Of a stretch of DNA of 64,000 nucleotides, positions 8,505 to 50,328 are shown one piece after another. Source of the stretch: Epithemia pelagica (lineage: Eukaryota; Protista; Bacillariophyta). The number at the start of each line of letters is the position of its first letter. Within the stretch, counting starts at the first letter, position 1. The notes below the pieces were generated by a model. It made no database searches. It had not been told where the DNA came from and saw nothing but the letters and a program-made list of their open reading frames with translations. Position numbers and translations under genes: made by a program. Where the stretch lies: positions 3,596,001 to 3,660,000 of the forward strand of contig OX337232.1 of the NCBI GenBank assembly GCA_946965045.2, in the 5' to 3' direction.

Positions 8505-9567
8505 GATGAAATTCTAGAACAAGGGGGTTGTCGTTTGTTGTTTGTTTGTTTGTTTGTTGTTACGGTGGTTGGAACTTCCTCGACGCACTGTGCACTCTCT
8601 CTCGCGCGCGCTATCTGCCAGTGTGTCGTCGATGATGATGATGATGATGATGATAATGATACTGAAGGAATACTCTAGCCAGATCCACAACGCGCCACGA
8701 TTCGGTAGGCGGCAGTTGTTGTTCGAGAAACAATGGAGATACCACACACACACAAGACGGAAGAACGAATGGTCCGAGGCCACACCACAAACGGGAGAAT
8801 TCTTTTCTCGTTTCAACTCTCTCTCTCTCTCGGCGCAAAAGCCTCTCCACCACCACTCGTCGTCTCGTTGTGGTTTGCCTTCTTGTTGGTCTGTCGCTCT
8901 CTCGAACCCAACCCCAACAGAAAGGGCGAGCAGACACTCGAGTTCTCACGCGAATCCAAGAAGAGAGCCAAACACACCAAGAAAAAAAGCGAATGGAGAA
9001 TGGACCGACACAACAAAAGGGAAGTGCACGGACGGCAGCAGCTTGTGTGTCTGTCTGTGGCTCGTCGTGTCCTCCCCGGTTGACGGTCGGTCCTTGGCAG
9101 ATGGTGTATCTTCGGACTATTTCCACGTGTGATTCTGCGACCGATTGCTCCGCGCTCGGGCCGGCCAGCTCGGTCCGGATGATGGATGGCGCGGATGGGG
9201 ACTGCGACCACAACGCGCGCCGCCAAGTCATTCGGGCGGGGTCGAGGTGTGCAGTATAGGTGCACAGAGAGGCATACCGATCGTTTGTTAACACAACCAC
9301 CACCACAACAACAACCGCAAGGACCATCCTACCAGAACACACAACACAACAACCGTTTGTTCCTTCTTCTCTTGTGTGGAAGAAAGAGTTTCCAGTGGAT
9401 CAAGAGTCTCGAAAACGTAGAGCGTGTGCCAAACCAAGAGTCTCGTTCCTACGACAATTTATGTTTCGTGTTCCATCATCCTCATGAAGAAGCAGGGAAC
9501 AAACCTCTATCATTATTATTCTTATGATTCGAGCCAACGTCAATTGGGTTCGACATGTATTAGGGTA

Positions 9568-25736: not shown

Positions 25737-28289
25737 TCATCGTTGCAGGTTGTGTCGCAGTGTGGTCGGTACCACGACCACCGGTTTTTCGTACAGGGAG
25801 GGTGCCGTCGTGGTGGTCGGTACCGAGACTCGATTTGGATGCTGAAAGAATGGACGAGTCTCTGCAAGTGTTGTCGTCGTTGGGATTGGTCGATACGACA
25901 CCAGCGGCTCCCCTCCACCACCATAAAGATGATTGGGGACCGAAGGGGTAGTCGCTGAAGGAGTCAAATACTGTACCGTTCGGCCGGTCCATACAAAGTG
26001 TGGATGAGTCAAGTCCAGCCGTTGTGTAGAAAGAATAATGGAAAGGGCAGTGGCTGGAACAATGGCCCAAATTCTCTCATCCGATTTGAATGACTGAGAA
26101 TCGAGAGGCCGTGTGGCGGTACTACTAGGACCCGCTGCTGCTGCTGTTGTTGGTCCGAGAGTGGGTTTTTCGAGACACACATGCGTCGTAGAGGTTTCAT
26201 CCATTTCACCACGACGAGGAGGCACAGCCGTAGATGGTGCGTGTGGCATGACATTCATGGGAGACGGTCCACCATCCACTCCTCGACTCGTCTTCGTGTT
26301 GTAATTGTTCTTCTTCTTCAAGTGTACTCCAGGGCCCGTCGCATAGGCATTCTTGTACTGAGCTCGGCGATACTCGGCCGCATTGGCCAATTGCCGAAGG
26401 TATCGTTGATGTCGTACAATGGCTTCGCGCATGGCATGGCCCGCCTTTTCTCGGGCATTCAAAGGAGTGAGTTCACCCCACCGTCCCGACTTGTCGTCCA
26501 TGGCCTTGATGAATCGTCCATAGACGGGTCGATTGGTATCCCTGTCACCGTCGTTTTCATGATCAGGGTCCAAGCCGGTTCCGTATCGAACGACATGGCA
26601 AATGTCGGCCAAGACAATGGTCTTTTCCAACTTGGTGGGGGCGTCGACGTAGCGTTGCCGGAAGCTGTCGACAATGTCGTAGAATCGAACATTGCCATAG
26701 CGTGAGATATTGCCTCGTCCCCGTCCACAAAAAACATCGTATTGAATGGCAACTTTGTAGTCCTTGGGCAAGGGCGTCAATTCCGGTGCTTGCTGTGGTG
26801 CTCGTTCGGGTTTGGATGGAGGAGATGGTTCGGTCGACCGCTTTGAAGAAGCAGCAGCAGCAGCAGCATCATGGCGAGAAGAGTCCATGGCCGGAGTAGG
26901 AGAAGTGGCAGAATCGAGAGGCCGTGTGGCGGTACTACTAGGACCCGCTGCTGCTGTTGTTGTTGGTCCGAGGGTGGGTTTTTCGAGACACACATGCGTC
27001 GTAGAGGTTTCATCCATTTCACCACGAGGAGGAGGCACAGCTGTAGATGGTGCGTGTGGCATGACATTCATGGGAGACGGTCCACCAACCCCTGGTGACA
27101 TGCGCCGCATGGTTCGACTCTGGACGGGTAGTGTCTTGTCCCCGGCAGCATGTCCACGGTGCATCTTGGACGATTTTGGTTTCGTTTCCGGCATCTTGCA
27201 CGACGACTTGTGGCGTTTCTTTTTTTGCTGGTGTGACGGGTGGATTGTATCCTCCTGATCCGTGGGGTGTCTCGTTTCCTGCATCTTGGACGACGACTTG
27301 TGGCTTTTCTTTTTCGGGTGAAACGTGCTGCATCCTTCGAGATTGTTCGTGTGGTCCTCCCTAGTGTCGTTGGCAGCAGTAGCAGCAGCAGTATCAAGTT
27401 GTCGTCGTGTCTCGTCGGATCCATCCAATCGTTGCATCTGATGGGAAGACTTGTGGTGGTGCCTTGTTTGATCGATTTTGGACGACGTGTGGTGTTTCTT
27501 CTTCTGTTGCGGTAATGTGTGGATTGTGTCCTGGCGAGAGTTGGCATGGTTCGTCTCGTCATGGACAGCAGCAGCCGTGTTGTATGGTGGTGTCTCCTCC
27601 TCCTGGTGGTGGTTGGTGGAGTCGGATTCATAGTCCACTCCTCGACTCCTCTTGTTGTTGTACTGGTTCTTCTTCTTCAAGTGTACTCCGGGGCCCGTCG
27701 CATAGGCATTCTTGTACTGAGCTCGGCGATACTCGGCCGCATTGGCCAATTGCCGAAGGTATCGTTGATGTCGTACAATGGCTTCGCGCATGGCATGGCC
27801 CGCCTTTTCTCGGGCATTCAAAGGAGTGAGTTCACCCCACCGTCCCGACTTGTCGTCCATGGCCTTGATGAATCGTCCGTAGACGGGTCGATTGGTATCC
27901 TTGTCACCGTCGTTGTCGTCGTCAGGAGCGTCCAAGCTGGTTCCGTATCGAACGACATGGCAAATGTCGGCCAAGACAATGGTCTTTTCCAACTTGGTGG
28001 GGGCGTCGACGTAGCGTTGCCGGAAGCTGTCGACAATGTCGTAGAATCGAACATTGCCATAGCGTGAGATATTGCCTCGTCCCCGTCCACAAAAAACATC
28101 GTATTGAATGGCAACTTTGTAGTCCTTGGGCAAGGGCGTCAATTCCGGTGCTTGCTGTGGTGCTCGTTCGGGTTTGGATGGAGGAGATGGTTCGGTCGAC
28201 TGCTTTGAAGAAGAAGCAGCAGCAGCAGCAGCAGCAGCATGGCGAGAAGAGTCCATGGCCGGAGTAGGAGAAGTGGCAGTACGATGCAT
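25737..28289 (-). CDS. Diatom DUF6824 protein with two near-identical DUF6824 domains
   Basis: DVFCGRG...GN.RF..IV...R.RY...EK......IC.VVR..GRFIK...W.EL....AREKAGHAMRE occurs twice. Start chosen by homology with the paralog at 51527. Confidence 0.82.
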   Translation of the reverse strand: MHRTATSPTPAMDSSRHAAAAAAAASSSKQSTEPSPPSKPERAPQQAPELTPLPKDYKVAIQYDVFCGRGRGNISRYGNVRFYDIVDSFRQRYVDAPTKLEKTIVLADICHVVRYGTSLDAPDDDNDGDKDTNRPVYGRFIKAMDDKSGRWGELTPLNAREKAGHAMREAIVRHQRYLRQLANAAEYRRAQYKNAYATGPGVHLKKKNQYNNKRSRGVDYESDSTNHHQEEETPPYNTAAAVHDETNHANSRQDTIHTLPQQKKKHHTSSKIDQTRHHHKSSHQMQRLDGSDETRRQLDTAAATAANDTREDHTNNLEGCSTFHPKKKSHKSSSKMQETRHPTDQEDTIHPSHQQKKKRHKSSCKMPETKPKSSKMHRGHAAGDKTLPVQSRTMRRMSPGVGGPSPMNVMPHAPSTAVPPPRGEMDETSTTHVCLEKPTLGPTTTAAAGPSSTATRPLDSATSPTPAMDSSRHDAAAAAASSKRSTEPSPPSKPERAPQQAPELTPLPKDYKVAIQYDVFCGRGRGNISRYGNVRFYDIVDSFRQRYVDAPTKLEKTIVLADICHVVRYGTGLDPDHENDGDRDTNRPVYGRFIKAMDDKSGRWGELTPLNAREKAGHAMREAIVRHQRYLRQLANAAEYRRAQYKNAYATGPGVHLKKKNNYNTKTSRGVDGGPSPMNVMPHAPSTAVPPRRGEMDETSTTHVCLEKPTLGPTTAAAAGPSSTATRPLDSQSFKSDERIWAIVPATALSIILSTQRLDLTHPHFVWTGRTVQYLTPSATTPSVPNHLYGGGGEPLVSYRPIPTTTTLAETRPFFQHPNRVSVPTTTTAPSLYEKPVVVVPTTLRHNLQR

Positions 28290-28552
28290 GGTTGGCGATG
28301 GTTGCTTTATTGCCTTGTTGGACGAGGGGCGTTTTGTGTTGTCTAATTGTAAAAAGGAACGCCTGGGAGACAACGGACGGTTGCCAATCTCGGTGTGTGT
28401 GCCTCGGTGTGTGTGTCTCGGTGTGTGTGCACAAGAAGAATCAAACGAAAAGCCTGTTTGGATGGACCTTTTTCTCACCGACAAACTACGCATGCGGTTT
28501 GGGTCGCTTGGTTATTTTATTTGTTGGAAGGGCGCGTCCTCTTGTTAAGTCG

Positions 28553-28752
28553 NNNNNNNNNNNNNNNNNNNNNNNNNNNNNNNNNNNNNNNNNNNNNNNN
28601 NNNNNNNNNNNNNNNNNNNNNNNNNNNNNNNNNNNNNNNNNNNNNNNNNNNNNNNNNNNNNNNNNNNNNNNNNNNNNNNNNNNNNNNNNNNNNNNNNNNN
28701 NNNNNNNNNNNNNNNNNNNNNNNNNNNNNNNNNNNNNNNNNNNNNNNNNNNN
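28553..28752. other. Assembly gap (200 N)
   Basis: Run of N. Confidence 1.
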
Positions 28753-29084: not shown

Positions 29085-29297
29085 CGCATCGTACCGCCCC
29101 GGTCAAGAAGGGACCGACGGACGAACGATGAAGAGGACATCGATCCCAGTGAGATCTCAAGAGCAAGAAGTGGTTGGGATGGTCATTCCTATGACCGTCC
29201 CAACAAAAGTTCAGCAATCATAAATTGTTGGAAAGAAGAAGAGCACAGTCATCAAGGATTTGATCACCCATTGGTTCTGTGTATTCGCTTCTTTCGC
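29085..29297 (+). repeat. Split direct repeat A1 (213 bp)
   Basis: Matches 37470-37682 and 38112-38324 end to end. Confidence 0.95.
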
Positions 29298-29360: not shown

Positions 29361-31717
29361 ATGAAGTTTGAGTGGGGAAGTACTCCGGATTCTTCACCCT
29401 CAGTGGGGTCGTCAGGTGAGTCTCTTGTGACCGGGGGGGGGGGGGGGGGACCCTTCGTTCGGGTTCTCTCTTCGGTGTTGTTCGTTTCGAACAATCTAGT
29501 TTTGAGTCGTTATGTCGGGGCATTTTTGGCACTGGGCAGCGTGTGTGTGTTCGCTCCGACTGTTCGGTTGCGTCCCATACGGCTCGGAAACAAGAATGGG
29601 CTTCTTTGGTGGGGGACGATGCCACCTGCATTTTTATTCGGGGCGGTAGTGTGTCCACGAATTCCGATACCGCGGATACGGTTTTCAGTCATCCCATTCT
29701 TCCGGGAGCTTGTGTCCGTGATTTGGATTGGAGTGAGATGGAACTGAGTCCGCGATCCCTCGAGAGTTGGCAGGCCACGTTCGCCTCTTTACGTCAAGTC
29801 GCATCCGAGGAAGGTGAGGGTGTGGATCTCACAATTGCTGCCAAAGTCATGGCAAATACGAAAGGTGAAGTCAAGTTTGCTGCCATGACACCTAAACCTA
29901 GCAAGCGTGCTAAGGTCGAAACAGTGTCTAGTAGTGATAGTGAGGATGAAATGGAACTCCTGGAAGGAGGCCATCCTCGTACTCCGGCAGGTCGTTCATC
30001 GATTCCATGGAAAGAGGTCCCTTTGGACATTGGCTCACAGCAAGCGACACCGTCGGTCAAGGTCTTGCAAGGTGGAGCGTGGAGCAATTTGGTAGAGAAT
30101 GTTAACCATCTCAAAGCCGATTGTCAACGCGCGTCCCACAAGAGAAAGGTAATGGAGGAAATGCAAGAAGAAGCGATTGAACAGCTGAACGTTAAGCTGT
30201 CGGTGTTGCATGCGTTGTTGGGGGTACGGCCTGCGGAATTTGGTACAGATTCGGCGTTTTCGGTCCTCAAGCACTGTGTTGAAACAGTACAAACAGTACG
30301 AGAATTGTTGAATCAGAAGCAGAGCCACCAGAGGATGGACGCTTCACTGGTGGCTAAGGTTGAGGAGCTGGATCGCAAGATGGATGTTGTTCAGGGTTCC
30401 TCGAAGTCGATGGTTCAAGGGGAGCTTGACAAATTCTTTGCTGACCAGAGCGAATTTCGTCAACAGTTTGTGAATCCTACGTTGACTCTTTTGTCTCGGT
30501 CGTCGAGTAACAATGCTGACCCAGGAGGAAAATGGGCCCAGATGTTTGAGAATCTCCAAGCACGAATGGATGCAATGGAGCGAGGTGGCGCTTCGGCCTC
30601 AACCGCGCCGTCGGGTGGATTGTCGACTGGTGGGGTTGGAAGTTTTGGATGGATGTCGGGAGGAGGTTCAGTTGGAGCGGCTGCAAGTGCGCCAACGGGA
30701 GCCACCGGGATGCTGACAGGATCTACCGGCTCGGCACTCGCAGATGCTATGGCCGAGCTGCGCCGTATGAAGGAAGAGTTGCAGGAAGTCAAAATGGGAA
30801 TTAGTGATCTGCAGGAGCAAGTAGACAATGAGGCGATTACGGTGGGATCCATCGTGTTTCCATCTCGTACTTTCTGTGTGTCTTGGCTTACCTTGCACCA
30901 CGCAGAAAGCGATCCGCATGTTTTCGTTGACGCTGTCTCGTTGTTGTCGTTGGCGACGTCGGATATGAGTTTGGACGAAGATCGAGCGGCCAACAAACGC
31001 GCAACAACAGCAAAGGTGAGAGATAAGACCCCTTATCACACGGCGTATATTGCGTCATTCAATCTAGACGTACCTTCTTTGCTGGGTAAAGGGACAGATC
31101 AGAGTCAGACCACGAACTCGCGAGCTCTGGGAGGCGTTCCGAAGTTTGAAGACTTTCACCCTCCGTCAAGGCGCGAGGGAATCCATCAGCGGATCCTTGA
31201 TCATGTACGGGATGGGAGGCAGACTCTTGAGCAAGCAATTGGTGAATTGTTTGCCTTTGGAACAGCGCCGTCGAGTGTGGCCAAGGAAATGTTGCATTTG
31301 AGTAAGGCCTTTTGGGATGACCTTTGTCACTGGATGGTACGATACCATCAACAGGTCCAGGCCGAGAGTGAAGCCAGCGAGCAGGAGGTTTGGATCCTCA
31401 TCTCGCATTGCGTGCGGGCGGTGTTTAAGAGCCTTAGAGAGGCTCGTGCTCCGGGCAGAGCATCAAATACCCCAGCTGGCATGTTGTGGGGGACCTTGAA
31501 AGCTCATGACGTGATGAAGGAGTACAGAGCTGCCGAATTCAGCGGCCATCCCAAGATAGCACTCATTTTGCACGAACACTTGATTCGGTTCGCGACCCCA
31601 CGTTCGAAATTCGATACACTTAAGTCAAGTCTGGAAGAACGGTTGGAAAAGCTGCAACGGTCAGTAAATGCGGCGGTGTCGGCAACTAACAAGGCGAGCA
31701 AGAAAGAAAAGTCGTGA
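29361..31717 (+). CDS. Gag-like ORF1 of element 1; one-base frameshift in the G17 run at 29433-29449
   Basis: With one extra G, ATG 29361 reads into LFGVVRF...LCRGIFGTGQRVCVRSDCSVASH, which matches element 2 FGITF...LCLGIKRGGNTFCIDPKCSKAGDH. The C-terminal LWGTLKAHDVMKEY matches LYGVLRTHDVMAEY. Coiled-coil-like middle. Confidence 0.75.
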
Positions 31718-31720
31718 GAA

Positions 31721-34700
31721 GTGAGTCCGTGGGAGGTTGTGGCAATATCTCAGAGGAAAGATAGGAAACGTGGACGGGAGGTTGGCGAGAAAATGAATGT
31801 GGAGAGCCGAGAGTTAGCGAAGGGCTCGTTGTTGAAACGTAAAGTAGATATGATCGACGCAAGTGACGAGTCGCTAACTGGAGTTGCGGAACAGAAGACT
31901 GGGCGGATGAGAGTAGGGAAAGGAAAGTGGCGAATAGGCATAGCAAGTATTGGAACCCCCTTTTGGTTTTGGGCGGTGACATCGCTTGGCTGTGTAAAGT
32001 GGATTGATGTGTTGGATGTAGATGACATTGGCGACGAAACTGGAGCTTCTGAATGGCGAGAGCTGTTGATCCCGTTAGAGCAGAAACTGACGAAGAACCG
32101 AGGTTCGAAAAAACAGCGAATTGAATTCCAGGAGTCGCAGGAGTGGAATAGACGCTCGCTAGTTGATGTTGTCTTCTTTGAAGGGGGTATGTCACCGGGT
32201 CCATCTCACCCAGTTTGGAGCATGGAGACCGTCCAAGTAGTGGTGTGGATAGGCGGTCAAAAATGGTCGGGTCCTCCTTTAGAGGATCTTCGGCTAGAGA
32301 AATGGTCAAAAGGGGTGATGAAGATTCCACATCAGGATCTTGGAGGTGTCACCGATTTGGTTTCTTGGATCCATTTTGCAGAGCGTACTCAAGGACCATC
32401 GAAGGAACAGTGCAAGGACATGCCAAGGTTCGTTGATTGTTGGGCCGATTTCCTCGATGATGGTTTAAGGAAGACAACTATGCGGGGAGTGATCGATCCC
32501 ACGGTCCACGGTAGAGAATGTAAATTATCTGTGGAGTGTGTACGAGGAGCACGTCCTTCATCGATGATTGTGAACCGCAAGCTGAGATGGAAGATTGACA
32601 GGTTCATAGAGCATACGTTGCCAAGTGTATTTGCATCAACAGGTCTCGTAAAGCGGCGGCTTACTCCGAAGGAAATCGCGATTACAATGGACTTTCCGGC
32701 TGGTCTCCATAAACGAGGATCGGATTCGGAATTGGCTCGTTGGTTGGATGATGTGTCGGTTCCCTTCAAGGTTAGAGTGCAAGTTGTTAATTCGTTGCGT
32801 GAATGGACGAGAGAATCGAAGGAAGGGTTCACAGAAGATGTGAAAATCAGGAAAGATGAGGGTTGTCTGGATCGAAACGGTTTACTCAAGGAAGAGGATG
32901 AGTGCCCCGATGAAACACGAATGACGGAAGACGAGATACCTTTGTATTCGATTCCCGACAGTGAGGAAGGGGGTGGCTCTCTCAACACCGAGGAAAGGCG
33001 TGAGGACAGAAACCTGAAAGCAACAAAATCAGACGATGCAAAAATCCCGACTTACCTTTGGGACAATCGTATCTGTCAAAAATTGGGAATCCAGAATGAA
33101 GGTAAACGGTTGGAAGTGGTCGACGCGCTGAATTCGATTCGCAAGGGGGCGCTACGATATTGGAAGCGTCGTGTCTGCGCGGATTTCTGGTCGTGGTGGA
33201 AGAATCAAAAGTTTGACGATGACGAGGAAGAAGTGCGAGATCAAACCATCAAAGCCGGACTCAGCGCTTTGGAGCATGCAGCGAGGTCATCCTGGTGGGA
33301 TTGGGACATGGGTTCTTCCCCTTTCTTCTGGAGGATGCCAGATTTGGGGTGGATGACGGAAATGAGAGACGGAGTCGCCCCCATGTGGATTGGACCGACA
33401 CCTGCATATCGGCGGCGTCAACATGCCAACCCGAATGAGGAGAGTAAAGCTTTGGAAAAGAAGAAGTTGACCAAAGTGAGGAAGCGGGGGTACATCGCGC
33501 CAACTCCAGGCATCAAATCACTTACCAGTTTCTTCTCAGTCCCGAAAGGGGAGGATGATATACGTATGGTTTATGACGGGACGAAGAGCGGTCTCAATGC
33601 GGCGCTCTTCTCTCCGTGGTTTGGTCTGGGAAATGTGAACGCTATGCTCCGTTCGATGGAAGGAAAAACATGGTCAGCAGATAATGATTTTGGTGAGATG
33701 TTCCTTAACTTTTGGGTTCATCCCGAGCTCAGATGTTATACGGGCATTGACATCACTGACCTGTTTCCGGAGGAATTGAAAGAACGTTGCGGACGCACAA
33801 GAATCTGGGAAGCATGGACGAGATGTGCGATGGGCCTCACAACTTCGCCCTACCAAACGACCCAGTGTGCCCAACGTGTAAAAAGGATAATTTTCGGAGA
33901 CCGGTCTGATCCTGAAAACATATTTGGCTGGGTTGACGTGAGGTTGAATTTGCCGGGGGATACAGACTATGACCCATCGCTGCCATGGATCAGTAAGATA
34001 AATGCGAATGGAGACATCGCGGCGGATGTCCACCCATACGTTGATGACTTACGTGAGACAGCTCCCTCGGAAGAGGAAGCCTGGCTGGCGGCGAGCAAAA
34101 TGGCAAAGGGAGCGGCGTTCTTTGGGTTACAGGATGCCGCAAGGAAACGAAGAGAGCCGAGCAAATCGCCGGGTGCTTGGGCTGGAGCCATTGTTGAAAC
34201 TGGTAATGATGGACGAGTATACAAGACTGTGGCTCAGGATCGCTGGAACAAGACAAAGGCTCACGTCGAAAGGTTGAGTGAATGGGCGGAATCGCCAGAA
34301 CGGATCAATCGAAAGGAACTCGAGCGCATACGAGGATTCCTTGTGTACGTGTCGCTTACTTACGACATTATGGTCCCCTATCTCAAGGGAATCCATTTGA
34401 CTTTGGAGTCATGGAGACAGGACCAAGATGGAGAGGGTTGGCGATTGCCTGAAAAAGATCGCAGAAAGCGAGCTTGTGAATGGAAGGAAAAGGCGAGTGA
34501 GATTCCGCCAGATACTGTCGCAAAGGTCCCGAGGTATGATGGGGATATCGCCGCCCTTATGGAACTTACGAAGGATAAAACACCGCCAAGAATCTTAGCG
34601 AGACCTCTCAAAGGCTCCAAGGCTGCCATTTTATTTGGGGACGCCTCCGGAGAGGGATTCGGCTCGTCGTTATGGATCTATGGATCAAGCACCGTAGAAA

Positions 34701-35569
34701 CAGAACATGGGCTTTGGACAAGGGCATACGGAGCCAGGTCATCGAATTTCCGCGAGTTGTACAACCTGGTTCTGCGCCTCGAGGCCTTGGTGGACAATGG
34801 AACCATTGAGCATGGTTCCGAAGTCTTTATGTTCACAGACAACTCGACGGCGGAGGCTGCCTTTTACAGGGGAACTTCGTCGACCAAGTTGTTGTATGAG
34901 CTAGTGTTGAGAACCAAAAGAATGGAGATGCGAGGTTGCATTTTTCTCCGTGTCGTCTGGGTGGCAGGCACACGGATGATTGAGCAGGGCACGGATGGGC
35001 TCTCGAGAGGTGACTTAATGACAGGAGTCATGGCCGGGAGTGATATGTTGTTGTATGTGCCCCTCAATAAGACCGTTGAAGAACGGCAGAGTGGGGTTGT
35101 GGATTGGATCACAAACAAAGCCACAACGCTCTCATTCTGGAAGACTCTCTCTGCGCAAGATTGGTTCGATCAAGCGTTTGAACAAGGAAATTTCGTGTGG
35201 ATTCCGCCTCCTGCTATTGCAGATGTTGCGGTGGATCAATTGTGCGAGGCGAGACACGTGCGCACACACTCTGCCCATGTTTTTATTTGCCCTGCGCTCA
35301 TGTCGAATCGTTGGAGGAAGAAGTTGGGAAAGGTCGCCGACTTTGTGCTTTATATCCCAGTTGGCTGTGAACTTTGGTCAAAGTCTCAACACGAACCGTT
35401 GATTGTTGCCTTTTTGTGCCCTTTTTTAAGCAGGAAACCTTGGCAGGTCAAGCGAGCAAAAGGCTTACTGGACACGGTGGACGGGGAACTGTCTGAGTTG
35501 TGGCCATCCGGTACAGCCGTTGTCGGGAATCTGTTGCGCAAATTATGGACATACACGGGGCACGAGTAG
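31721..35569 (+). CDS. Pol ORF2 of element 1: C5-methyltransferase-like N-terminal domain, reverse transcriptase, RNase H
   Basis: RT: FFSVPKG.DDIRMVYDGT, DNDFGEMFLNF, MGLTTSP, YVDD. RNase H: GDASG.GFG, SSNFREL, FTDNSTAE, QGTDGLSRG. Confidence 0.93.
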   Translation: MSPWEVVAISQRKDRKRGREVGEKMNVESRELAKGSLLKRKVDMIDASDESLTGVAEQKTGRMRVGKGKWRIGIASIGTPFWFWAVTSLGCVKWIDVLDVDDIGDETGASEWRELLIPLEQKLTKNRGSKKQRIEFQESQEWNRRSLVDVVFFEGGMSPGPSHPVWSMETVQVVVWIGGQKWSGPPLEDLRLEKWSKGVMKIPHQDLGGVTDLVSWIHFAERTQGPSKEQCKDMPRFVDCWADFLDDGLRKTTMRGVIDPTVHGRECKLSVECVRGARPSSMIVNRKLRWKIDRFIEHTLPSVFASTGLVKRRLTPKEIAITMDFPAGLHKRGSDSELARWLDDVSVPFKVRVQVVNSLREWTRESKEGFTEDVKIRKDEGCLDRNGLLKEEDECPDETRMTEDEIPLYSIPDSEEGGGSLNTEERREDRNLKATKSDDAKIPTYLWDNRICQKLGIQNEGKRLEVVDALNSIRKGALRYWKRRVCADFWSWWKNQKFDDDEEEVRDQTIKAGLSALEHAARSSWWDWDMGSSPFFWRMPDLGWMTEMRDGVAPMWIGPTPAYRRRQHANPNEESKALEKKKLTKVRKRGYIAPTPGIKSLTSFFSVPKGEDDIRMVYDGTKSGLNAALFSPWFGLGNVNAMLRSMEGKTWSADNDFGEMFLNFWVHPELRCYTGIDITDLFPEELKERCGRTRIWEAWTRCAMGLTTSPYQTTQCAQRVKRIIFGDRSDPENIFGWVDVRLNLPGDTDYDPSLPWISKINANGDIAADVHPYVDDLRETAPSEEEAWLAASKMAKGAAFFGLQDAARKRREPSKSPGAWAGAIVETGNDGRVYKTVAQDRWNKTKAHVERLSEWAESPERINRKELERIRGFLVYVSLTYDIMVPYLKGIHLTLESWRQDQDGEGWRLPEKDRRKRACEWKEKASEIPPDTVAKVPRYDGDIAALMELTKDKTPPRILARPLKGSKAAILFGDASGEGFGSSLWIYGSSTVETEHGLWTRAYGARSSNFRELYNLVLRLEALVDNGTIEHGSEVFMFTDNSTAEAAFYRGTSSTKLLYELVLRTKRMEMRGCIFLRVVWVAGTRMIEQGTDGLSRGDLMTGVMAGSDMLLYVPLNKTVEERQSGVVDWITNKATTLSFWKTLSAQDWFDQAFEQGNFVWIPPPAIADVAVDQLCEARHVRTHSAHVFICPALMSNRWRKKLGKVADFVLYIPVGCELWSKSQHEPLIVAFLCPFLSRKPWQVKRAKGLLDTVDGELSELWPSGTAVVGNLLRKLWTYTGHE

Positions 35570-36977
35570 AATGTGTAAAAGCATTTGGCATGCAAGTTGT
35601 TACGCCAAATTGGAACATGATACCTTCCCGGTGTTTGAAGCCGCAGATTTGGATGATGCTCTGTTGGACGAAGAGTTGCATGGGGAGATGGAAGATGACT
35701 CCAGGCGATTTCAGGAGGCGAGAGTCGGGGACGACCTGATGTGTCCTTTCCAATGCGACGAATGCTCCTTTTACAACTTGCAAGGGCGATTCGCTGCGGA
35801 TCGAGAGCAAGACAAGATTTTGAAGTTGTGTATTCGACGGGCGAACTTGGATGCGTTTTGGTCGCAAGAAAGGAGCACGGTAGAGAAAAACTGGAGAGAG
35901 ATGAAAGGGCTGCTGGAAATCGGGAACACGATAGGTTTGGATCACCCTCTTCCGAATAGAGGTCCAATGCCGCTCGGAGACACGCAAGGATTGAATGTGG
36001 CGTGCCTTATGCTGATGAAAACTTTACGAGAAGGACGGAACTCAAAACGGATTCAATTTGAGACGGCCAGGAAGGTTCGGTCTGTGGTGTCAAATTTCTG
36101 CCACACGTTGCCAGGAGGAAGTGGATTGTCGGCCGTGGGCCAAGGGGACAGAGGTGGATTGTTTTTTAGCGCCAGTTCAACAAACTCCTACTGGTTCCGA
36201 CGATTCATGGCAGGCTGCCATCGTCGCATGGGAGATGTTTGGATTCCGGATCAGGCCGTAACTTTGGATGAGATCTTGGCTGGGCTGGCAATCCTTGAAG
36301 AAGAATGGCAAGGTGGTGTCACGGGTCAGAGAAAGCGGGAGGTGGCGTTGACAGGTGCCTTGGTTGTGGTTGGATTCGCAGCCGCCCTGCGAGGAGAAGA
36401 GATCCCACAAATTGATGTGGGACTGATGAGGAAATACTGGGAAGAAGGACTCAATTACCAACGAAAAAGACACGTACCGTTGGCTCTTGCTGGACGTTTC
36501 AAACAGACGAGCGGAACCTTTCGGATTTACATCCAACCGCTGTGCGATCGAACAAGTTCGGGCATTGAAATAAGAGTCTGGTTGGAAAGAGCAATACGGA
36601 GTCTCGAAGAGGTCAAGATAAGGACGGGCCCGATGTTTCGGATGTCTACAAAACAAGGCAAGATCAAGCGTGCGTCCGTGGGAGATCTCGACATACTGTT
36701 TCACGCCCTTTGGAAAAGGGTACAGCACCGACACCCGCACTTGATAGTCGAGAGCACAAAGGTCGAGGAAGTGTTTAGTACTCGGCGTTCATTCAGAAGA
36801 GGAGCTACGACGGAAGCGCAGAACCGGGGCATTTCGAAAGATACGATCGAAATGAATAACCGATGGAAAAAACACCTGAAAGGAAGAGGGATACTTCCTT
36901 CTATGTCAATGATCGAGCGATACTCGGATGCCAAGGCCTCAGTCGAGGCGTTGGTTAAGTTTTCTGAAGGCTTGTAA
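35434..36977 (+). CDS. Tyrosine recombinase ORF3 of element 1 with an N-terminal Cys-rich finger; start probably supplied by splicing
   Basis: ALRGEE (catalytic R), RSFRRGATT, NRW, ERY (nucleophile Y). The frame is open from 35430 with no ATG before the conserved CxxC. Confidence 0.88.
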
Positions 36978-37051: not shown

Positions 37052-38755
37052 GGTGATGACTCGGCTATACTACTACCTCGGTGGTATACGTCTAGGTCGC
37101 TTGTTGTCCGTCAGCTGGCCTGTTTCATGGACTGGAAGTCTCTCTCCACGGTTGGTTGCTTGAGTGTGGCAACTCATTGCAGCTGACTTCTGCATCGCTG
37201 CGAAGATATTTCGAGGATGCGGTCTCACTTTGTGAGGAAAAGGAGTGGGGGTTCTGGTCTGGAGACACACTCGCCCACGGCAAACACAGTTTAGCAGATT
37301 CTGGAGATCTGCGACTGTGGCGCGATTACGGATCCTTCCTACGGATATGGGTGGGGGGCCATAACCCCCCCCCCAGCGTTGGTCAAGTACTTTAATATAG
37401 TTTTTCTAAGTGTGTAAGAATGTGAGAACGAGAAGGGTCGGTGTCCTCAGAAGAGAGAGGAACTAGTACCGCATCGTACCGCCCCGGTCAAGAAGGGACC
37501 GACGGACGAACGATGAAGAGGACATCGATCCCAGTGAGATCTCAAGAGCAAGAAGTGGTTGGGATGGTCATTCCTATGACCGTCCCAACAAAAGTTCAGC
37601 AATCATAAATTGTTGGAAAGAAGAAGAGCACAGTCATCAAGGATTTGATCACCCATTGGTTCTGTGTATTCGCTTCTTTCGCCCACCCGCCCGCCCGGTG
37701 ATGACTCGGCTATACTACTACCTCGGTGTTATACGTCTAGGTCGCTTGTTGTCCGTCAGCTGGCCTGTTTCATGGACTGGAAGTCTCTCTCCACGGTTGG
37801 TTGCTTGAGTGTGGCAACTCATTGCAGCTGACTTCTGCATCGCTGCGAAGATATTTCGAGGATGCGGTCTCACTTTGTGAGGAAAAGGAGTGGGGGTTCT
37901 GGTCTGGAGACACACTCGCCCACGGCAAACACAGTTTAGCAGATTCTGGAGATCTGCGACTGTGGCGCGATTACGGATCCTTCCTACGGATATGGGTGGG
38001 GGGCCATAACCCCCCCAGCGTTGGTCAAGTACTTTAATATAGTTTTTCTAAGTGTGTAAGAATGTGAGAACGAGAAGGGTCGGTGTCCTCAGAAGAGAGA
38101 GGAACTAGTACCGCATCGTACCGCCCCGGTCAAGAAGGGACCGACGGACGAACGATGAAGAGGACATCGATCCCAGTGAGATCTCAAGAGCAAGAAGTGG
38201 TTGGGATGGTCATTCCTATGACCGTCCCAACAAAAGTTCAGCAATCATAAATTGTTGGAAAGAAGAAGAGCACAGTCATCAAGGATTTGATCACCCATTG
38301 GTTCTGTGTATTCGCTTCTTTCGCCCACCCGCCCGCCCGGTGATGACTCGGCTATACTACTACCTCGGTGGTATACGTCTAGGTCGCTTGTTGTCCGTCA
38401 GCTGGCCTGTTTCATGGACTGGAAGTCTCTCTCCACGGTTGGTTGCTTGAGTGTGGCAACTCATTGCAGCTGACTTCTGCATCGCTGCGAAGATATTTCG
38501 AGGATGCGGTCTCACTTTGTGAGGAAAAGGAGTGGGGGTTCTGGTCTGGAGACACACTCGCCCACGGCAAACACAGTTTAGCAGATTCTGGAGATCTGCG
38601 ACTGTGGCGCGATTACGGATCCTTCCTACGGATATGGGTGGGGGGCCATAACCCCCCCCCAGCGTTGGTCAAGTACTTTAATATAGTTTTTCTAAGTGTG
38701 TAAGAATGTGAGAACGAGAAGGGTCGGTGTCCTCAGAAGAGAGAGGAACTAGTAC
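37052..38755 (+). repeat. 3' repeat array B1(37052-37469)-A2(37470-37682)-B2(37697-38111)-A3(38112-38324)-B3(38339-38755)
   Basis: Direct comparison. B copies differ in C-run length (10/7/9) and by one G>T in B2. A 14-bp spacer CCACCCGCCCGCCC lies between A and B. Confidence 0.95.
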
Positions 38756-38862
38756 CTCACGTGGCAATCATACACAAAAATTTATAGTCAAAACATAGGC
38801 CCCCTTCCTTTTGTGGAGACGACGACCATGGCAGTCGATACAACGTCGAAAATGATGCCTTA

Positions 38863-40898: not shown

Positions 40899-43352
40899 AT
40901 GTCTTTCGCTCCGTCTAAAGCTCCTCCTCCCGACGATGAGGACTCTCTCCTTTCGTCTCTCGTTGCTTCGGCATCCATTGTCACTCCGGGCATGGCCGGG
41001 GCCCCAGCTCGTGCTGGGGCTCAGGGGGGGGGGGGGGATAGTGGTCAAATTTCCTTCCTTCCTTCTGATTCCACGGACCTTTCGACAGCTACTCCCATGA
41101 AGACGACTGTTACGGAACCCTCAGGCACGGGCGATTTCTTGTCTACAAGTAAGTTTGGAATTACCTTCCTCTCCGACGAAACTGCCCAGGAAAAGCTCCT
41201 TTGTTTGGGAATCAAGCGAGGGGGGAACACCTTTTGCATAGACCCCAAGTGCTCCAAAGCCGGGGACCATGGAACAGGTTTACCCCCCTTCGACTTGTCT
41301 CAAACCAGCGGAGGATTCATTATGAAGAAGACCTCGGCATCCGCCTTCTGCTCGCCAGGCATCCCTCTTGATTCTATTCCGTCCGAAATCAAGAACAAGC
41401 TCCTCCAAGAAAAGCATACGGTGGATGACTGGATGAAGAAGTCCCTAGCTATCAAACGCTTCGCGTTGATCAAAAAGGAACAAGGAGAAACAGCTGAGAA
41501 CCTTGAAGAGTCGGAAGCTCGTGTCATCAAGATCACGGACTCTTCGACACCGTACACTGTTTCGAAACGTTTCGCAACTTCAAATCCGTCTTTTGTAGTT
41601 GAAAACTTCTCTCCTCATCGAAAAATCCTCGGCGGAAATCTGCAAGAGGTGACAACCAAGATTTGAGAAGACCCAAGCATGATCCCAATGGTATTGCGGG
41701 AGATCGAGGATTCTATGATGGAAGCTGGAGAGTTGATCCGTGCTATCTCCTCTGACCAGGTAAAGGCAAAACAAGAAGTCGTTGATAATGTTGAAGCCTT
41801 GGGGTTGCAACTGGAAAAACTACACATGGAAATCGGACCGAGGGAAAACATTAATGAGGTTTTTCAAGCCCCAACAATTCTTTGGGGTGTCCTTCAAGCC
41901 ATTACCAACTCAATTACGGGGAGTGACTCAACTTCGGGGGGAGTCAACCAAGACTCACTCCGATCCATGGAATTGTTTGTCAAGTCCAAGATCGGTGATC
42001 TAGACATTCAAATCAACAACATGTCGACTCATTTCAAGACGCTTCATTTGCAAACAAGAAACGATTTGCAGACCGTGTCCACGGATGCTAAGGCCATGGT
42101 GGATTCTCTTCGTTCTCACTTGGTCAAAGGCTTCCAAGGCCTCATCAGTCGAATGTCTACAGTGGAGCAGTCGGTGCAGATAATTCAACAGAACGGGATA
42201 AACAATCCAAGCAACTCGATGTCGAGCGGCACTTTGGGAAATTTGACCCCGCAACAACAAATCGATTGGTTGGCTAAAACCAGCAAGCTGGAGGCAGAAA
42301 TCCAAGGACTAAAAGCTGTCCTCCAACAGGGACAAGCGGATTTTCAACGTTTGAAGTCTAAGATGGATACAACAGCAATCAAGTTTGGAAACTTGGGTTT
42401 GTCGACAGTGGACGACTGCAAAGCATGGGTCGCTATGAAGTTTGGCTCCAGGGCATATGGATTGTTCTTCGACTTGCCTTTGGTTTTGGAATGGTGTGCC
42501 TCCCAGGAGCATGGCGACGTTTTGTCCATGCTTACGGCAATGGAAAAAAGGCACAAGATGCAAATCGCTACTACAAATGAAGCGAGATCTCTTTATGCTA
42601 TGAAGCTTGAGTTTCCACAGATTCTTTACAAAGATCTGCCTGGAACCGGCCGAGACCCGTCTTTCTTAACAGCTATGAAAGACTATGAAGATTGGGAGGC
42701 TCCAGAAACAGGAGTCCGAGATAGAATCATCAACAAGATCGGCAATATGCAATCCATGTTTGGAGAACAGATCGCAATCACAATGTCGGGAGAACCGGAA
42801 GCCCATGCCTTGGCTACCTCGATGCTGTCGGTCTCAATTGGATGTTGTCGTGAGCTTGTGAATTATTTTGACGAAACAATGAACGAGCTTACGATGAAAT
42901 CGAAGTTCACCACACGCAAGGCTTTTAGCCTGGTAACGCAAGTGGTTCGACGCTTCTTCTTGGACCTCTACAAGGTGAGGGCTCAAGTCTATTCGTCGAT
43001 TTCAACCTCGGATCAAAGTGGTCAATGTGCGTGGATCCTCTATGGGGTGCTTCGAACCCACGACGTCATGGCAGAATATTCTACCGCGCGTTTCTAGAAT
43101 CACCCGTCCGTTTCCAGTGAATATATTCGGTTCCTGTCGACGAACTCAGGATTTGAATCCCTAAAAACACTGGAGGACAAGGTGGACTCTCTCAAACAAA
43201 ACATGCAAACGGCCACCAAAGAATGTCATGCGGCGAAGAAAGCAGCTGATACTGCTAATAGCACTGTGGACTCAGTCAAAAAGGACGTGGCTGAGTTGAA
43301 GAAAGCAAACAAACGCCGTGGCGGAAACAACAGCAACAACAACAGCGATTGA
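40899..43352 (+). pseudogene. Gag-like ORF1 of element 2 with in-frame stops at 41664-66 (TGA) and 43095-97 (TAG)
   Basis: The frame continues through both stops (F*NHPSVSSEYIRFL aligns with FSGHPKIALILHEHL of element 1) to TGA 43350-52. Confidence 0.82.
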
Positions 43353-43376
43353 CAAGAAGGAGCATCTAAATTAGGA

Positions 43377-46300
43377 ATGGATAGTTCACCATCTGTCTCT
43401 GCCGATTTAGATGCTCTTAGTGAAGCCTCCACTATTAGTTCTGGCCGTCTTCTACAATGTGGAGAGAAACCGCGAGCACGGTCGCATCCCTCTTGTGAGG
43501 TTACAATTCAACGATCCGTTCGACGAATGGTGGACCGCGGAGTGAAAACTTTTCGTGCTGACGTCTCTTGTCTTCTCTTGGGACAAAGTTCCTGGTATTG
43601 GGGCTTGGCGTTGAACCAAGGGGATTGGAGTGGGATCTACATGCTGGCCAGCGATTATGAGGCCAGACGCACCAACCCCTTTTGGCATTCGGTTGCCAAA
43701 CAGTTAGAACCAAAATTGCACCTTGTGCCCAGCATCAACTTCATCCTGGGCCGAGGCTTGATTTCCTTGGTATTGATTGAAGGAGATCCAACGTATTTGG
43801 GGTCTACCTTACCTCATATACCGTCCGATTGGCCTGTCCTGATGCTTCTTCCTGCGGGTTGGTCACGTCCGTCCATCCCTGACGTGCACTGGCTCGCCGT
43901 GAGTCACACACGTTGTGGCGGTGTCACTACGGCCAGAGTCAATATTGGCCGTCGCAATCTCCCTCCTTTGCACTTTCAGGTGGAGGTTCGGCGGTCTATT
44001 TCCTCGATTCTCGATCACTCAGTTCGGCCGACCTCTTGCTCAGCTGTCGGGCCATCTCAACCATGTTACCCGCAACACAGTCAACTTTACGTCCGCAATT
44101 TGAAGCGTCATGTTTTGGTGCCCACGACGTTCTACAAGACTGGGTGGGGCCACCGTCCCCTTACCCCCGCCGAGTTAGGATCCGCTTTTGATCTCCCCTT
44201 GTGGCTGCCTCCTACCTCGGACGCCCATGCTTGGTGGCACAACCATGTGATGGGGGCGCGTTTTGTCCCTATCAAGATCCCTGCTGCTGTGTTGGGCGGT
44301 GCCATCCCTCATTTGGAACCGGACTATGTACATCATCTGGATCGAGCCGGGGAAAAGCGTGACGGGCCTCCTCCTCATTGTCCTCCGACGCCCAAACGTC
44401 GGCGAGTTTCGCCACCCATGGATGCTACAACGCGTGATGGTCAACCGGGCACGTGGTTTGCTCCCATTCGTGCTTTCCTGCCCCACTCAGCTTGGCTGGA
44501 CGACTCTCTCATTGCAACCAAAGCTACTCAGGCGGACGATGCGGAAGCCCCCTATGCTTTGTGGGATGGTCGCATTCGTGGCGTGTTTCCTTGGGTTACT
44601 GATCGGGCCTTAGCTGGGTTTCGCACTCTTGGCCTTTGGTGGTGGCGACGTTCTTTGTACCGTGGTTCGGGATGAATTGGCTGTCGCTTCTACCAGCGGC
44701 GCGCCAGCGCCAGGGGGGGGGTGGGGTGGGGTGGGGGGGGTGATGTTTTCTCTTTGCTTGAGGTCTGCATAGCTGGGCGTTCGGTTCTTTCTCAATTGCT
44801 TGCGGCCTCCTGGTGGGATTGGGACCACGGCTCCTCCCTGATCTTTTGGCGGTGGAACGGCCAACAACAACAACGCGATGATTGGTACGGTACTCCAATC
44901 CACGTCACTGCTCCTCTTCCACGCAACAAACGTCCCCAACGTGCTCCTACGGCGGACTCCCGACCACGTGTTGCCGCCAAACTCGCCAAGGTTCTATCAC
45001 GTGGCTATTTTGACACCGATGCATCCATCCTTAGTTTAACCGACTACTTCGATGTCCCCAAGGGTGACACCGACATCCGGATGGTTTATAATGGAACCAG
45101 CTCCGGCCTCAACGATTCCTTGTGGGCTCCAAATTTCTGGCTTCCGACGGCGGAAACTTCATTGCGCCTTTTAACAACCGCTTCGTACTGTGGAGACATG
45201 GACCTAGGGGAAATGTTTCTCAACTTCCCCATGGACCACAATCTGCGTCCTTTTGCCGGTGTGGATCTACGCCCCATCAAAGACTTGTTCCCTTCGGAGC
45301 TTTTGGAGGCGGGATGTGCAGACAAAGTCCGCTGGAACCGCCTGTTTATGGGCATGCTCCCAAGCCCTTTTCACGCGGTGGAACAGTTTTACTTGGCTGA
45401 GGAAGTCGCTAGAGGCTCCCCTCATGACTTGCTCAACCCCTGCGGATTCGATGAGGTTCGGTTTAACATTCCGGGCTCGGCCGATTATTCTCCAGTACGG
45501 CCTTGGGTGATGAAGTGGAACTCCCAAACTAACTCCATCGCCGGTGATTCGGTTACATACATGGACGACATTCGAATTGTCGGGTCGTCGGCAGAAAACG
45601 CATGGCAGGTGGGTAGACAACTGGCTTCACGCCTCCAATATTTCGGCATTCAGGACGCGCCGAGGAAACGTCGTCCGCCCTCCAAGACCCCGGGAGCATG
45701 GGCTGGGTCGGTCCAGCATATTTCAGACACTGCTGTGTCCAAGACGGTCACACAAGCGAAGTGGGAAAAAGGGAAAGGAATCATTCGACTGTACAAAGAG
45801 GCTTTCAAGAACAGTGATTCCCCGTCCTTTTTGCACAAGCAAATGCAACGCGACGTCGGGTTCCTGGTGCATCTAGCAATGACTTGTGCTTGCATGATGC
45901 CTTTCCTTAAGGGTTTCTACCTGTCCATGAACTTGTGGCGAGGAGGACGCAACAAGGAAGGATGGAAACTTTCAGCAAGGGAATGGATTACAGAACCGCA
46001 GGAAAAACTCGACACTCGAGAATACGACACGCTCTGCGGCTTTGGGAATGACGTAGAGAAATCATTCGACCAACGCGAAAAGGAAGACCTTCAACCTTCA
46101 CCTCAAATATCCGGTGTCCCAAGACTCAAGGCAGATGTTGAGGCACTGTCAGCTCTTTTTGACTGTGACACTCCCCCAATCATCAAGGTCCGATGCGAAA
46201 CCATCTTTATTGCCTTATACGGATCTGGCGACGCGTCTGGAGCCGGATTCGGATCCGCCATCCAGCTGCCGCAAAAGGGATTGTCTTACCGAATTAGCGT

Positions 46301-47256
46301 CTGGGATAGTGACGTTGTGGTGGGAGAGTCTTTCAAACTGGAGAGAGTTTACCAATTGTGTGGAGGCTCTGGAGGAGGAAGCGAGGAAAGGGACTTTGAA
46401 ATCCTCGGAAGTATTTTTCTTCACCGACAACTCAACGGTGGAACGGTGCTTTTACAAGGGGTCCTCCTCCAGCCCCAAACTCCTAGACCTGGTGATCCGC
46501 CTAAGACGACTAGAAATGGCACACTCGTTGCGGTTACTTATTTCACATGTGTCAGGTAAAAGAATGATTGCGTGGGGTGTGGATGGTATTTCCAGAGGTC
46601 AGATGAACAAAGGCGTCATGGCGGGTCAACCGATGCTGGCGTTCATCCCACTGCACAAAACACCAATTCAAATGTCAGACTCCCTTATGGGATGGGTAAA
46701 GTCATGGCTGGGGCCAAAGACGGAATGGCTTACCCCCATGGACTGGTTTACAACCGCCCACGACATCAGAGGCTGGACAATGCCTACTGAAGCAAACAAA
46801 CTGTCCCTGCCAATACTGAGGCCAGGACACTTTGTTTGGAGTCCTCCTGCGGGCGCAGCAGATGCCGCCCTGGAAGAACTCAGGAAGATTAGACACAAGA
46901 GACAAAAGTCTACTCATGTCTTTCTATGTCATCGTCTGCTTACTCCCCGCTGGTACAGACTGATGCACAAAGCTTGTGATCTCGTAATTACCATTCCGGC
47001 TGGAACGTCGTTTTGGCCTCGTGACAACTATGAACCTCTCATCGTCGGTTTTGCCTTCCCTTTTCTTAGGTCAAAGCCGTGGCAACTGCGCGGCACGCCA
47101 AAAATGTTCGCAGTGGAGAGGAAGTTGCGAGAAATGTGGAAAAACGATGAACTGGGTGGACGGGATCTTTTGCGGAAACTTTGCATTCAGTGTTGGAAAC
47201 TGGCCACCATGTCGGAAAGCATGGTGTCCAGGGTGTTATTTTTCGAGCGAAGATGA
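43377..47256 (+). pseudogene. Pol ORF2 of element 2 (MTase-like, RT, RNase H) with a stop at 44673-75 and a +1 T insertion at 46331-33
   Basis: DYFDVPKGDTDIRMVYNGT, DMDLGEMFLNF, YMDD, GDASGAGFG. Removing one T restores GESSNWREF, then FFTDNST and GVDGISRG. Confidence 0.9.
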
Positions 47257-48643
47257 CGGTTTCTACATTGCTAGCAAAAATACATCCTACGGGCAAGATG
47301 ATCAAGATCGGCTAGTTTCAGAAAGTTGGAAGCAGCAATCTCGGGACAGATCCGAAGACTTTTTGAAAGCAAGAAAGGGTGACCATTTGATCACCCCGTT
47401 TGAGTGTGATTTTTGCATCTTTCGCAAGCTGCGATTGCGAGACCCGGATCGTACAAACGTGCAAGACAACTATCTCATGATTTGCATCAGACGAATGAAT
47501 CTCGATGCCTTTTGGAGTAAAGCTCCCAGCACAGTAAAACAAAATGCAACCTTGGTGAAGCGTATGATTGAAAGCTCGGCGAAAGTAGGGAATCCGCATG
47601 GGCCGTTTGAAAGAGCAAGCCCTTTCCCTCCGCACGACCATTGTGGATACCACATAGCATTTCTCATGCTTGATGACTCGAGGAACCAAGGAAAATATCA
47701 CAAGACTCATAAGCAATTTGATTCGGTGAGAAGAATCCGGTCGGCATTCTCAAACTTTGTTCGGGCAACTCCTTCCACCTTGATGGGGCCGGCGTCTATG
47801 GTATTGGTGGACAACAATGGCAAAACCGCGAGCAGAATTGGAAACGACGAAAGTGGCTCTCTCTGGTTCTCAAGATTTGCAGAAGGTCTTAAAAGAAGAA
47901 TGGGTCAAGACTGGCGACCGGACCAGGCAATCACCCCGGATTTGCTACTAGCGGTACTCTCCTCGGTAGAACAAACGGTCGTGGACTCGGAGTCGCTAGA
48001 GTGGCAATACACGCAAATCATGGCGGGTACCTTTTTTGTGATAGCTTACGTATTGTCGCTAAGAGGGCCCGAAGGTTTTCTTCTGGACTTGGAAGGTCTC
48101 CGTCTACATGGAGACTCTCTTCGGCATCGGGCTAGCTGCGTGGTTATAGCATTGTGGGGTCAATTCAAGGGCGAAAACGCTGAAAGAGCGCACTTGCTTC
48201 CTTGTTGCGATATTACAGGAAGTGGCATTCCAGTTCGGACTTGGGTCCGACGAGCGGTTCTTTTGGCTCTGGATAACAACAAAACCAAGGGACCACTGAT
48301 GACTCATAGAGATGGAAAAAAGATATCATCTCGGGATATTGATGAAATATTCCACTTCCATTTGACGCAGGTGTGGAATCAAAGCCCCCATCTGTTTCTC
48401 TCTCACGAGATCAGTGACGAGGAAGACATTGTGAACAAGTACTCGAATTCTCGATCCTTCAGGAGAGAATCAAATACCCGGGCAAAAGAAATGAACGTAT
48501 TGATTCCTGACACAGACATCATTAACAGATGGCGCGTTAAAGAATCAGCAGGAACAAGAAAAGAAGGCGGGTCCATGGATCAAACCTACACCGATCCGAC
48601 CCTGTTGTTGGCGCCTTTCCTTCGATACACCCAACAGATGTGA
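47070..48643 (+). CDS. Intact tyrosine recombinase ORF3 of element 2 with an N-terminal Cys-rich finger
   Basis: SLRGPE, RSFRR, NRW, TY motifs; colinear with element 1 ORF3; no stops. Confidence 0.88.
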
Positions 48644-49975: not shown

Positions 49976-50328
49976 CTTTTCGTACGAGGGCGGCGTGACC
50001 TGTACCGAAACGTACTGGTGGGGACGATGGAATGGAGGAGGCGTCATCGTCGTCGTATCCGCCAGTGCTGTTGGTGGCGGTCGGTGGTACGCCGAATGCA
50101 AGGGCTCACCACCACCCTGAGGAATGGGGGCCCACAGTAGTACTTGTCGATTTTTCGTACGAGGGCGGCGTGACCTGTACCGAAACGAACTGGTGGGGAC
50201 GATGGAATGGAGGAGGCGTCATCGTCGTCGTATCCGCCAGTGCTGTTGGTGGTGGTCGGTGGTACGCCGCATGCAAGGGCTCACCACCACCCTGAGGAAT
50301 GGGGGCCAAAGTAGTAGTACTTGTCGAT
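49976..50328. repeat. 175-bp tandem duplication of the 3' end of the DUF6824 gene
   Basis: ttttcgtacgagggcggcgtgacctgtaccgaaacg... occurs at 49977 and 50152. Confidence 0.93.

Follow-up and report, generated by a model that had tools for sequence, protein, structure and literature searches.

A predicted C5-cytosine-methyltransferase fold, without its catalytic motifs, before reverse transcriptase in the Pol protein of a diatom retrotransposon

A retrotransposon in the genome of the diatom Epithemia pelagica very probably carries a retained, catalytically dead cytosine-5 methyltransferase (C5-MTase) fold in its Pol protein, ahead of the reverse transcriptase (RT). Such a domain had been proposed from the letters of the window alone, the window being the stretch of 64,000 nucleotides of contig OX337232.1 that was analyzed here. 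Fold searches, motif counts, dN/dS ratios, and the congruence of the domain and RT trees all bear the proposal out. The fold is predicted from a structure model. The motifs of catalysis and cofactor binding are lost across the family, and the domain is kept by selection.

Layout of the elements and the gag-pol boundary

There are two related elements in the window (Table 1). Element 1 consists of an A repeat, three ORFs, and a B-A-B-A-B array. Since its repeats are 99-100% identical, the insertion is young. The repeats follow the split direct arrangement (A1, then B1-A2-B2 downstream) of PAT-like elements and of Ngaro-like ones alike, plus one additional A-B unit on the right. This extra unit may be real or an effect of the assembly. 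The first ORF is called gag by its position, and a Pfam search with it returned nothing above cut-off. Its ATG and the main frame (29420-31717) are in different frames across a run of 17 G at 29433.

Table 1. Features of element 1 and of the domain of element 2, in positions of the window
Feature	Positions	Strand	Remarks
Left-end repeat A1 of element 1, 213 bp	29085-29297	+	100% identical to 37470-37682 and 38112-38324
ORF1, gag-like, coiled coils	29361-31717	+	A homologous ORF precedes pol in relatives
Single in-frame TGA at the ORF1/pol boundary, candidate readthrough site	31715-31717	+	Frame comparison in relatives
pol frame without interruption, 1283 codons, of which codon 26 is the first ATG	31718-35569	+	
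Predicted dead C5-cytosine-methyltransferase fold, Pol aa 71-362	31928-32803	+	AlphaFold2 model, Foldseek, VIA
H-x3-GGVT, equivalent to motif VIII; other residues stand for both arginines of active enzymes	32324-32386	+	Global hhalign register
R-x-L-x3-E-x5-D-x-P and P-x-K, equivalent to motifs IX and X	32654-32803	+	Weak DNA-MTase profile matches there
Conserved pre-RT block, KATKSDDA to WWDWD	33017-33310	+	Conserved in relatives
RT core, approximate bounds, YVDD at 34037	33500-34200	+	Weak RVT_1 matches and motif in sequence
RNase H-like domain (GDASG, FTDN, DGLSR)	34637-35010	+	Motifs in sequence, conserved in relatives
Domain following RNase H, likely Dam-type (adenine MTase-like)	35180-35542	+	Conserved in 14 aligned copies
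Likely tyrosine recombinase, encoded by the third ORF, which overlaps the end of pol	35430-36977	+	LRGEE, RRSxRR, NRW, and a late Tyr conserved
B-A-B-A-B repeats (B ~420 bp, A 213 bp)	37052-38759	+	99-100% identity
Predicted dead C5 fold domain of element 2, degenerate copy from a distant family	43533-44321	+	

The C5-MTase-like domain lies N-terminal to RT, as originally described, and does not abut it. Between the end of the domain at about aa 362 and the RT core there is an acidic linker of about 70 aa and a conserved block of about 170 aa. The pre-RT block has dN/dS of 0.05-0.10 in relatives, and no family match was found for it. The RT core is marked by FFSVP (aa 605) and YVDD (aa 774). 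RVT_1 matches it with E 0.054 in element 1 and 0.0016 in element 2, both below the Pfam cut-off. It is followed by three motifs that we take to be those of the RNase H family.

After RNase H comes a C-terminal domain with W-x-PPP in place of NPP. Pfam and PDB searches with it were blank. With the homologue P0051, Atlas gave a score of 0.91 and 184 of 256 features, in a cluster that has PF05869 (Dam) on 14% of its members. The domain is likely of the Dam type, which is a lead rather than an HMM-confirmed assignment. Its position is that of the methyltransferase (MT) domain in DIRS1-like and PAT-like elements, and Pol thus probably carries both methyltransferase folds. As the accessible parts of the sources define the groups, Ngaro elements lack the MT domain, and PAT-like elements combine it with split direct repeats (PMC3266345, PMC4157794). 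The original prediction had called the element Ngaro-like. That label is probably wrong, since a Dam-like domain is probable here, and element 1 is better called PAT-like, a class assigned from structure.

The third ORF gave a weak XerC/D match at the first catalytic Arg (probability 2.7%) and no match in library searches, Pfam and PHROGs among them. Its start (35430-35800) is Cys-rich, with CxxC pairs and FQCDxCxF that are kept in relatives, and could be a zinc ribbon. The CpG observed/expected ratio is 0.93-1.04 in the ORFs of element 1, with no CpG depletion, and the CpG content gives no hint of self-methylation.

The layout recurs in element 2 (about 40900-48643), which is broken by stops at 43095 and 44673 and by a frameshift in pol. 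No terminal repeats were found for it in a limited comparison. The motif pattern that had been reported to recur in this element was found in the ORF at 43353-44675.

ORF1 and pol lie in one frame with a stop between them in 17 of the 18 elements that have both ORFs (25 elements were examined, seven of them without ORF1 on the contig). By our grouping, gag and pol share a frame in 11 of 12 lineages, the exception being L027, where they overlap instead. The stop was located in element 1, in element 2 (43350-43352), and at loci L003-L049. Eight of the 18 elements have no in-frame ATG before the domain. Given the common frame and these missing start codons, Pol is likely made by stop-codon readthrough. 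Element 1 itself has an early ATG in pol. A stable hairpin follows the gag stop in only three of 14 elements, and the stop contexts vary. No description of gag-pol readthrough in this retrotransposon order was found in the literature covered, a scope outside of which lie subscription journals, Repbase reports, and supplements. In one lineage (L010:3962-4930 and L006:1751-2719), gag and pol are separated by a 323-codon in-frame ORF that has a TGA stop on either side. It is blank in Pfam, with 56% identity between the copies and dN/dS of 0.16 over residues 166-290. The pol of this lineage would need two readthroughs or another start.

Predicted fold and loss of the catalytic motifs

The AlphaFold2 model of the approximately 290-aa domain, a single model built from a 28-row alignment, has pLDDT 87.5 and pTM 0.87, and the five models range from 80 to 87.5 without templates. 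All 41 rows listed by Foldseek against the PDB are C5-MTase family entries, with M.HhaI the best (E 8e-8). An independent aligner, VIA, placed C5-MTases in the top 19 of 48,161 solved chains (Z 17.1 to 8.9), and the first chain with another fold follows at Z 7.0. M.HhaI leads here also (Z 17.1, rmsd 4.1, 257 aligned). The structural matches span model residues 4-308. They take in both lobes of a two-lobed fold in which the motif X helix returns to the large domain. Because both lobes are matched, the match is specific to C5 enzymes and is not that of a general Rossmann fold. Cytosine MTases again lead the matches in a viral structure library. The structural test that had been proposed for the domain was thus clearly passed. 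Sequence identity to the structural matches is 8-15%. The DNMT3 entries reach Z 11.8-12.6, below M.HhaI, a hint that the donor was not DNMT3, at an identity of 10% where no phylogeny is possible.

A C5-MTase match by sequence-profile search had also been set beforehand as a test, and here no significant match was obtained. None of the 28 aligned members and none of 80 scanned members (from the best 150 of 1,719 clusters) reach a Pfam match with PF00145. NCBIfam gave no significant match with the domain, and nothing significant was found in the PDB by sequence or by profile. A match to 3kwr in the PDB search was rejected as chance. Alignment by hhalign with ten active phage and E. coli C5-MTases has a probability of 6% and covers motif IX only. 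Its score of 25.8 exceeds 40 of 40 column shuffles (maximum 15.4). The sole weak match in PHROGs is a DNA methyltransferase, phrog_116 (E 0.14), on the motif IX/X stretch. Atlas, run on the domain of a homologue, gave unnamed clusters only. Homology to the C5-MTases is therefore predicted from the fold, and not proven at the level of sequence.

The motifs quoted in the original prediction are all in the pol frame where they had been placed. These are WRIG at aa 71 (31928), VDVVFF at aa 149 (32162), IPHQ at aa 203 (32324), RRLTP at aa 313 (32654), and VPFKV at aa 348 (32759). The order I, IV, VI, VIII, IX, X is found in the strands and helices of the model, and motifs VIII to X are also in order in the global hhalign alignment. 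The registers come from strand order in the model and this weak alignment. Because global hhalign misplaces the N-terminal half, it was used for motifs VIII to X and not for motifs I to VI, which were placed by secondary structure only.

The absence of the catalytic PC and ENV motifs was confirmed. The copy in the window is free of Cys from aa 93 to 231, and its motif VI strand is VQVVVWIGG. With the whole stretch free of Cys, the loss stands whatever the exact register. One hundred near-full-length members were picked from 212 segments by profile coverage (median pairwise identity 21%). FxGxG, EN, and the motif X GN were found in 0 of 100. PC was found in one member and RxR in five, and Arg in register in seven and in one. 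A Cys anywhere in the loop is present in 15 members, at scattered places. The PC, ENV, QxRxR, and GN motifs are invariant in all ten comparison enzymes. That the domain still methylates, by an unusual chemistry or on an RNA substrate, is very improbable. The whole fold is kept, including both lobes, and the carboxymethyltransferase 8yf3 (Z 15.0) is a case of a C5 fold put to another use. However, the missing or scattered Cys and the absence of the cofactor motifs from all 100 members argue against activity.

The family conserves other residues instead. At the motif VIII equivalent these are H205 (98/100), G209 (99/100), G210 (98/100), and T212 (87/100). Further along are R313 (97/100), E319 (100/100), D325 (99/100), P349 (98/100), and K351 (84/100). 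The tryptophans W83, W167, and W196 are conserved in 89, 83, and 87 of 100 members, near the former cofactor and base pockets. G209, R313, L315, E319, and P349 are kept core residues of motifs VIII to X. Peculiar to the family are H205, G210, T212, D325, K351, and several tryptophans. It could be imagined that H205, T212, D325, and K351 form a new catalytic site on the old fold, such as a hydrolase or a self-cleavage activity that frees Pol from Gag. The near invariance of H205 and D325 at such low identity would fit, and active enzymes have small residues at these two columns, in the global hhalign register. LTR elements carry a protease directly after Gag, and the present domain comes directly after Gag in frame, in an element with no recognizable protease. 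Even so, this is improbable. G209, R313, L315, and E319 match the motif VIII/IX structural core of active enzymes, and with the other invariant residues belonging to that core, H205 and D325 may be a buried stabilizing pair.

Family, selection, and co-inheritance with RT

A HMMER scan with the 28-row alignment against 1.84 billion representatives found 1,719 clusters (50% identity) at E <= 0.001, of which 765 reach 1e-10. Word-based searches gave 13, 18, and 7 relatives. In a metagenome scan, 341 candidates yielded 49 loci, and the domain profile matches 38 ORF segments of more than 80 aa at these loci, both window copies included. The family is multi-copy in one organism, as seen in three runs that are contigs of one study, and no relatives were found in viral contigs. 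The member analysis drew on the best 150 of the 1,719 clusters, and there could be catalytically active members among the rest. Among these 150, 64 run into the Pol linker or RT, four have a longer unmatched tail, and 82 end within 120 aa and are silent on context. In 56 of 56 proteins with RT among the best 150, the domain comes before RT. At three loci (L014, L027, and L034), the assembled contig, 8.4-10.7 kb long, is a whole element and begins and ends with the same 115-127 bases. These contigs may be circular forms or collapsed repeats.

The domain of element 2 belongs to the same family. It was matched with E 7e-4 by a profile of close relatives of element 1 only and with E 1e-22 by a profile of 99 other members. 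Both profiles were built without element 2 and searched against 1,110 window ORFs and reversed ORFs, where the best other target had E 0.12-0.22. A single-sequence structure model of the element 2 domain had pLDDT 33 and was not used.

The domain is under purifying selection in relatives. The dN/dS check that had been proposed was run on three related in-register copies and gave a ratio of 0.15 in the domain, whereas the linker next to it is at 0.30-0.60 and RT at 0.03-0.04. In another lineage the domain has 0.14 (0.08-0.21). Among 60 pairs with at least 60% identity, the diverged pairs are mostly at 0.1-0.3, and very young pairs and pairs with L049 are at 0.34-1.2, with wide intervals reaching 1. 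Domain and RT trees were compared for 30 proteins with both. The distance correlation is 0.86, a value as high being reached in 0 of 2,000 permutations. Of the supported splits, 11 of 14 and 13 of 14 are common to the two trees, and there is one strong conflict, among close relatives. Measured by tree length, the evolutionary rate of the domain is about 2.6 times that of RT. Purifying selection, together with a domain tree that tracks the RT tree, identifies an old, retained pseudo-enzyme. It likely arose by one old capture into the ancestor of this family of tyrosine-recombinase (YR) retrotransposons, followed by early loss of catalysis and inheritance with RT. A single capture, early loss, and continued selection fit the selection and tree data.

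These results also bear on whether the domain is a neutral relic or a false fold produced by the prediction. The lack of significant sequence-profile support would agree with such a reading. It is nevertheless largely refuted by the selection and fold results and has only the slightest probability. The low dN/dS of the domain, residues that stay invariant among highly diverged members, and five template-free models of good pLDDT are all against it, and so are the weak sequence signals, which fall on motif IX and exceed every column shuffle.

Possible function and known systems

The dead fold is best explained as a putative non-catalytic nucleic-acid-binding module of Pol, for which we judge the chances to be about even. 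Readthrough of the in-frame stop would give a Gag-Pol fusion with the dead fold right behind Gag, and the fold would enter the particle with it. There, its two-lobed cleft, basic overall, could hold the RNA template or the cDNA beside RT. We infer that the holding would serve copying, strand transfer from repeat to repeat, or the formation of a circle. There is a precedent in the adenine methylase domain, an inactive MTase retained in DIRS Pol according to the accessible text (PMC3537659). Net charge is positive in 87 of 100 members, which is a weak sign of binding, because the active comparison enzymes are near neutral. Against binding, the known DNA-contacting arginines are lost.

A role in counter-silencing is less probable, and on balance unlikely. 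The dead fold would read methylated or hemimethylated CpG, or would cover the cDNA, and so keep the host DNMT5 off fresh copies as a shield, decoy, or reader. In a diatom, loss of DNMT5a depletes methylation and derepresses young transposable elements, as given in the accessible part of the source (PMC9998398), which supports such a role. The three conserved tryptophans near the old cofactor and base pockets, the faster evolution of the domain, and the undepleted CpG of element 1 point the same way. However, no positive selection was seen in the pairs tested, and the arginines that hold the flipped cytosine are gone.

The domain might also serve as a scaffold in the manner of DNMT3L, an inactive partner of the active DNMT3 with a regulatory role. 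The dead fold would then oligomerize Pol or bind Gag, RT, or a host DNMT. Complexes of the inactive DNMT3L with DNMT3 are among the structural matches, and we hold this to be about as improbable as the new catalytic site. DNMT3L-type pseudo-methyltransferases likewise have a C5 fold without catalytic motifs that is kept by selection. They are host regulators of an active partner, whereas the present fold is encoded by the element, is fused to RT, and keeps both lobes.

A broader reading is possible and doubtful. The elements would form an undescribed and very large YR superfamily in which a readthrough Gag-Pol lies between C5 and Dam-like folds. Its invariant His, Thr, Asp, and Lys would carry a new function, either as a methylation reader or shield or as an enzyme that processes Gag-Pol or cDNA.

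Other methyltransferase domains have been found in retrotransposons. In SymbioDIRS-Dnmt3, a DNMT lies within the Pol ORF of a YR retrotransposon with A-coding-B-A-B repeats (PMC5890265). Common to both are a C5-MTase domain in one Pol ORF with RT, A-ORFs-B-A-B repeats, purifying selection, and congruent domain and RT trees. As far as the accessible text goes, however, its DNMTs keep the key residues, match PF00145, and group with Dnmt3 (PMC5890265). The present domain, in contrast, is from a diatom, has lost the catalytic and cofactor motifs, and is invisible to Pfam. The Dam-like MT domain of DIRS1-like and PAT-like elements is likewise kept in Pol and is called catalytically inactive in the parts of the sources at hand (PMC3537659, PMC3266345, PMC4157794). 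It differs in being of the adenine-MTase type and in lying after RNase H, and the present Pol probably has both. EpiLTRs are retrotransposons with both adenine and cytosine methyltransferase domains (bioRxiv 10.64898/2026.05.21.726589). From the available portion of that preprint, they are LTR elements of Cymbomonas and Euglena with chromodomains and a sequence-detectable DNMT that is sister to DNMT4. The present element differs from them in its tyrosine-recombinase type and in the dead C5 fold, invisible to sequence searches, at the N-terminus of Pol.

It is thus already known that the Pol of DIRS elements can contain active DNMTs (PMC5890265), and a dead C5 fold in Pol was not found in print, in sources seen in part. 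Likewise, no account of a YR retrotransposon with an inactive C5 fold turned up in the same literature, to which subscription journals, Repbase reports, and supplements did not belong. In the accessible parts of the published reports, the DNMTs of retrotransposons were detected with Pfam and taken for active enzymes, which would mark the cDNA of the element itself. A fold that is kept for long without its chemistry and is invisible to Pfam implies a non-catalytic value in Pol, and also that DNMT capture has been undercounted. This is relevant to the role of MT domains in DIRS-order elements. For experiments it is of use that the domain is small and folds well and that the element is young and multi-copy.

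The rest of the window contains a number of other features. There is a 200-base N gap at 28553-28752 and a low-complexity ORF of 1,980 codons without a Pfam match at 9421-15363. Two DUF6824 genes, of a family typical of diatoms, are at 25737-28511 and 50106-51638 and have internal duplications. Xanthine/uracil permease genes form a tandem pair at 811-7816 and are about 73% alike in DNA.
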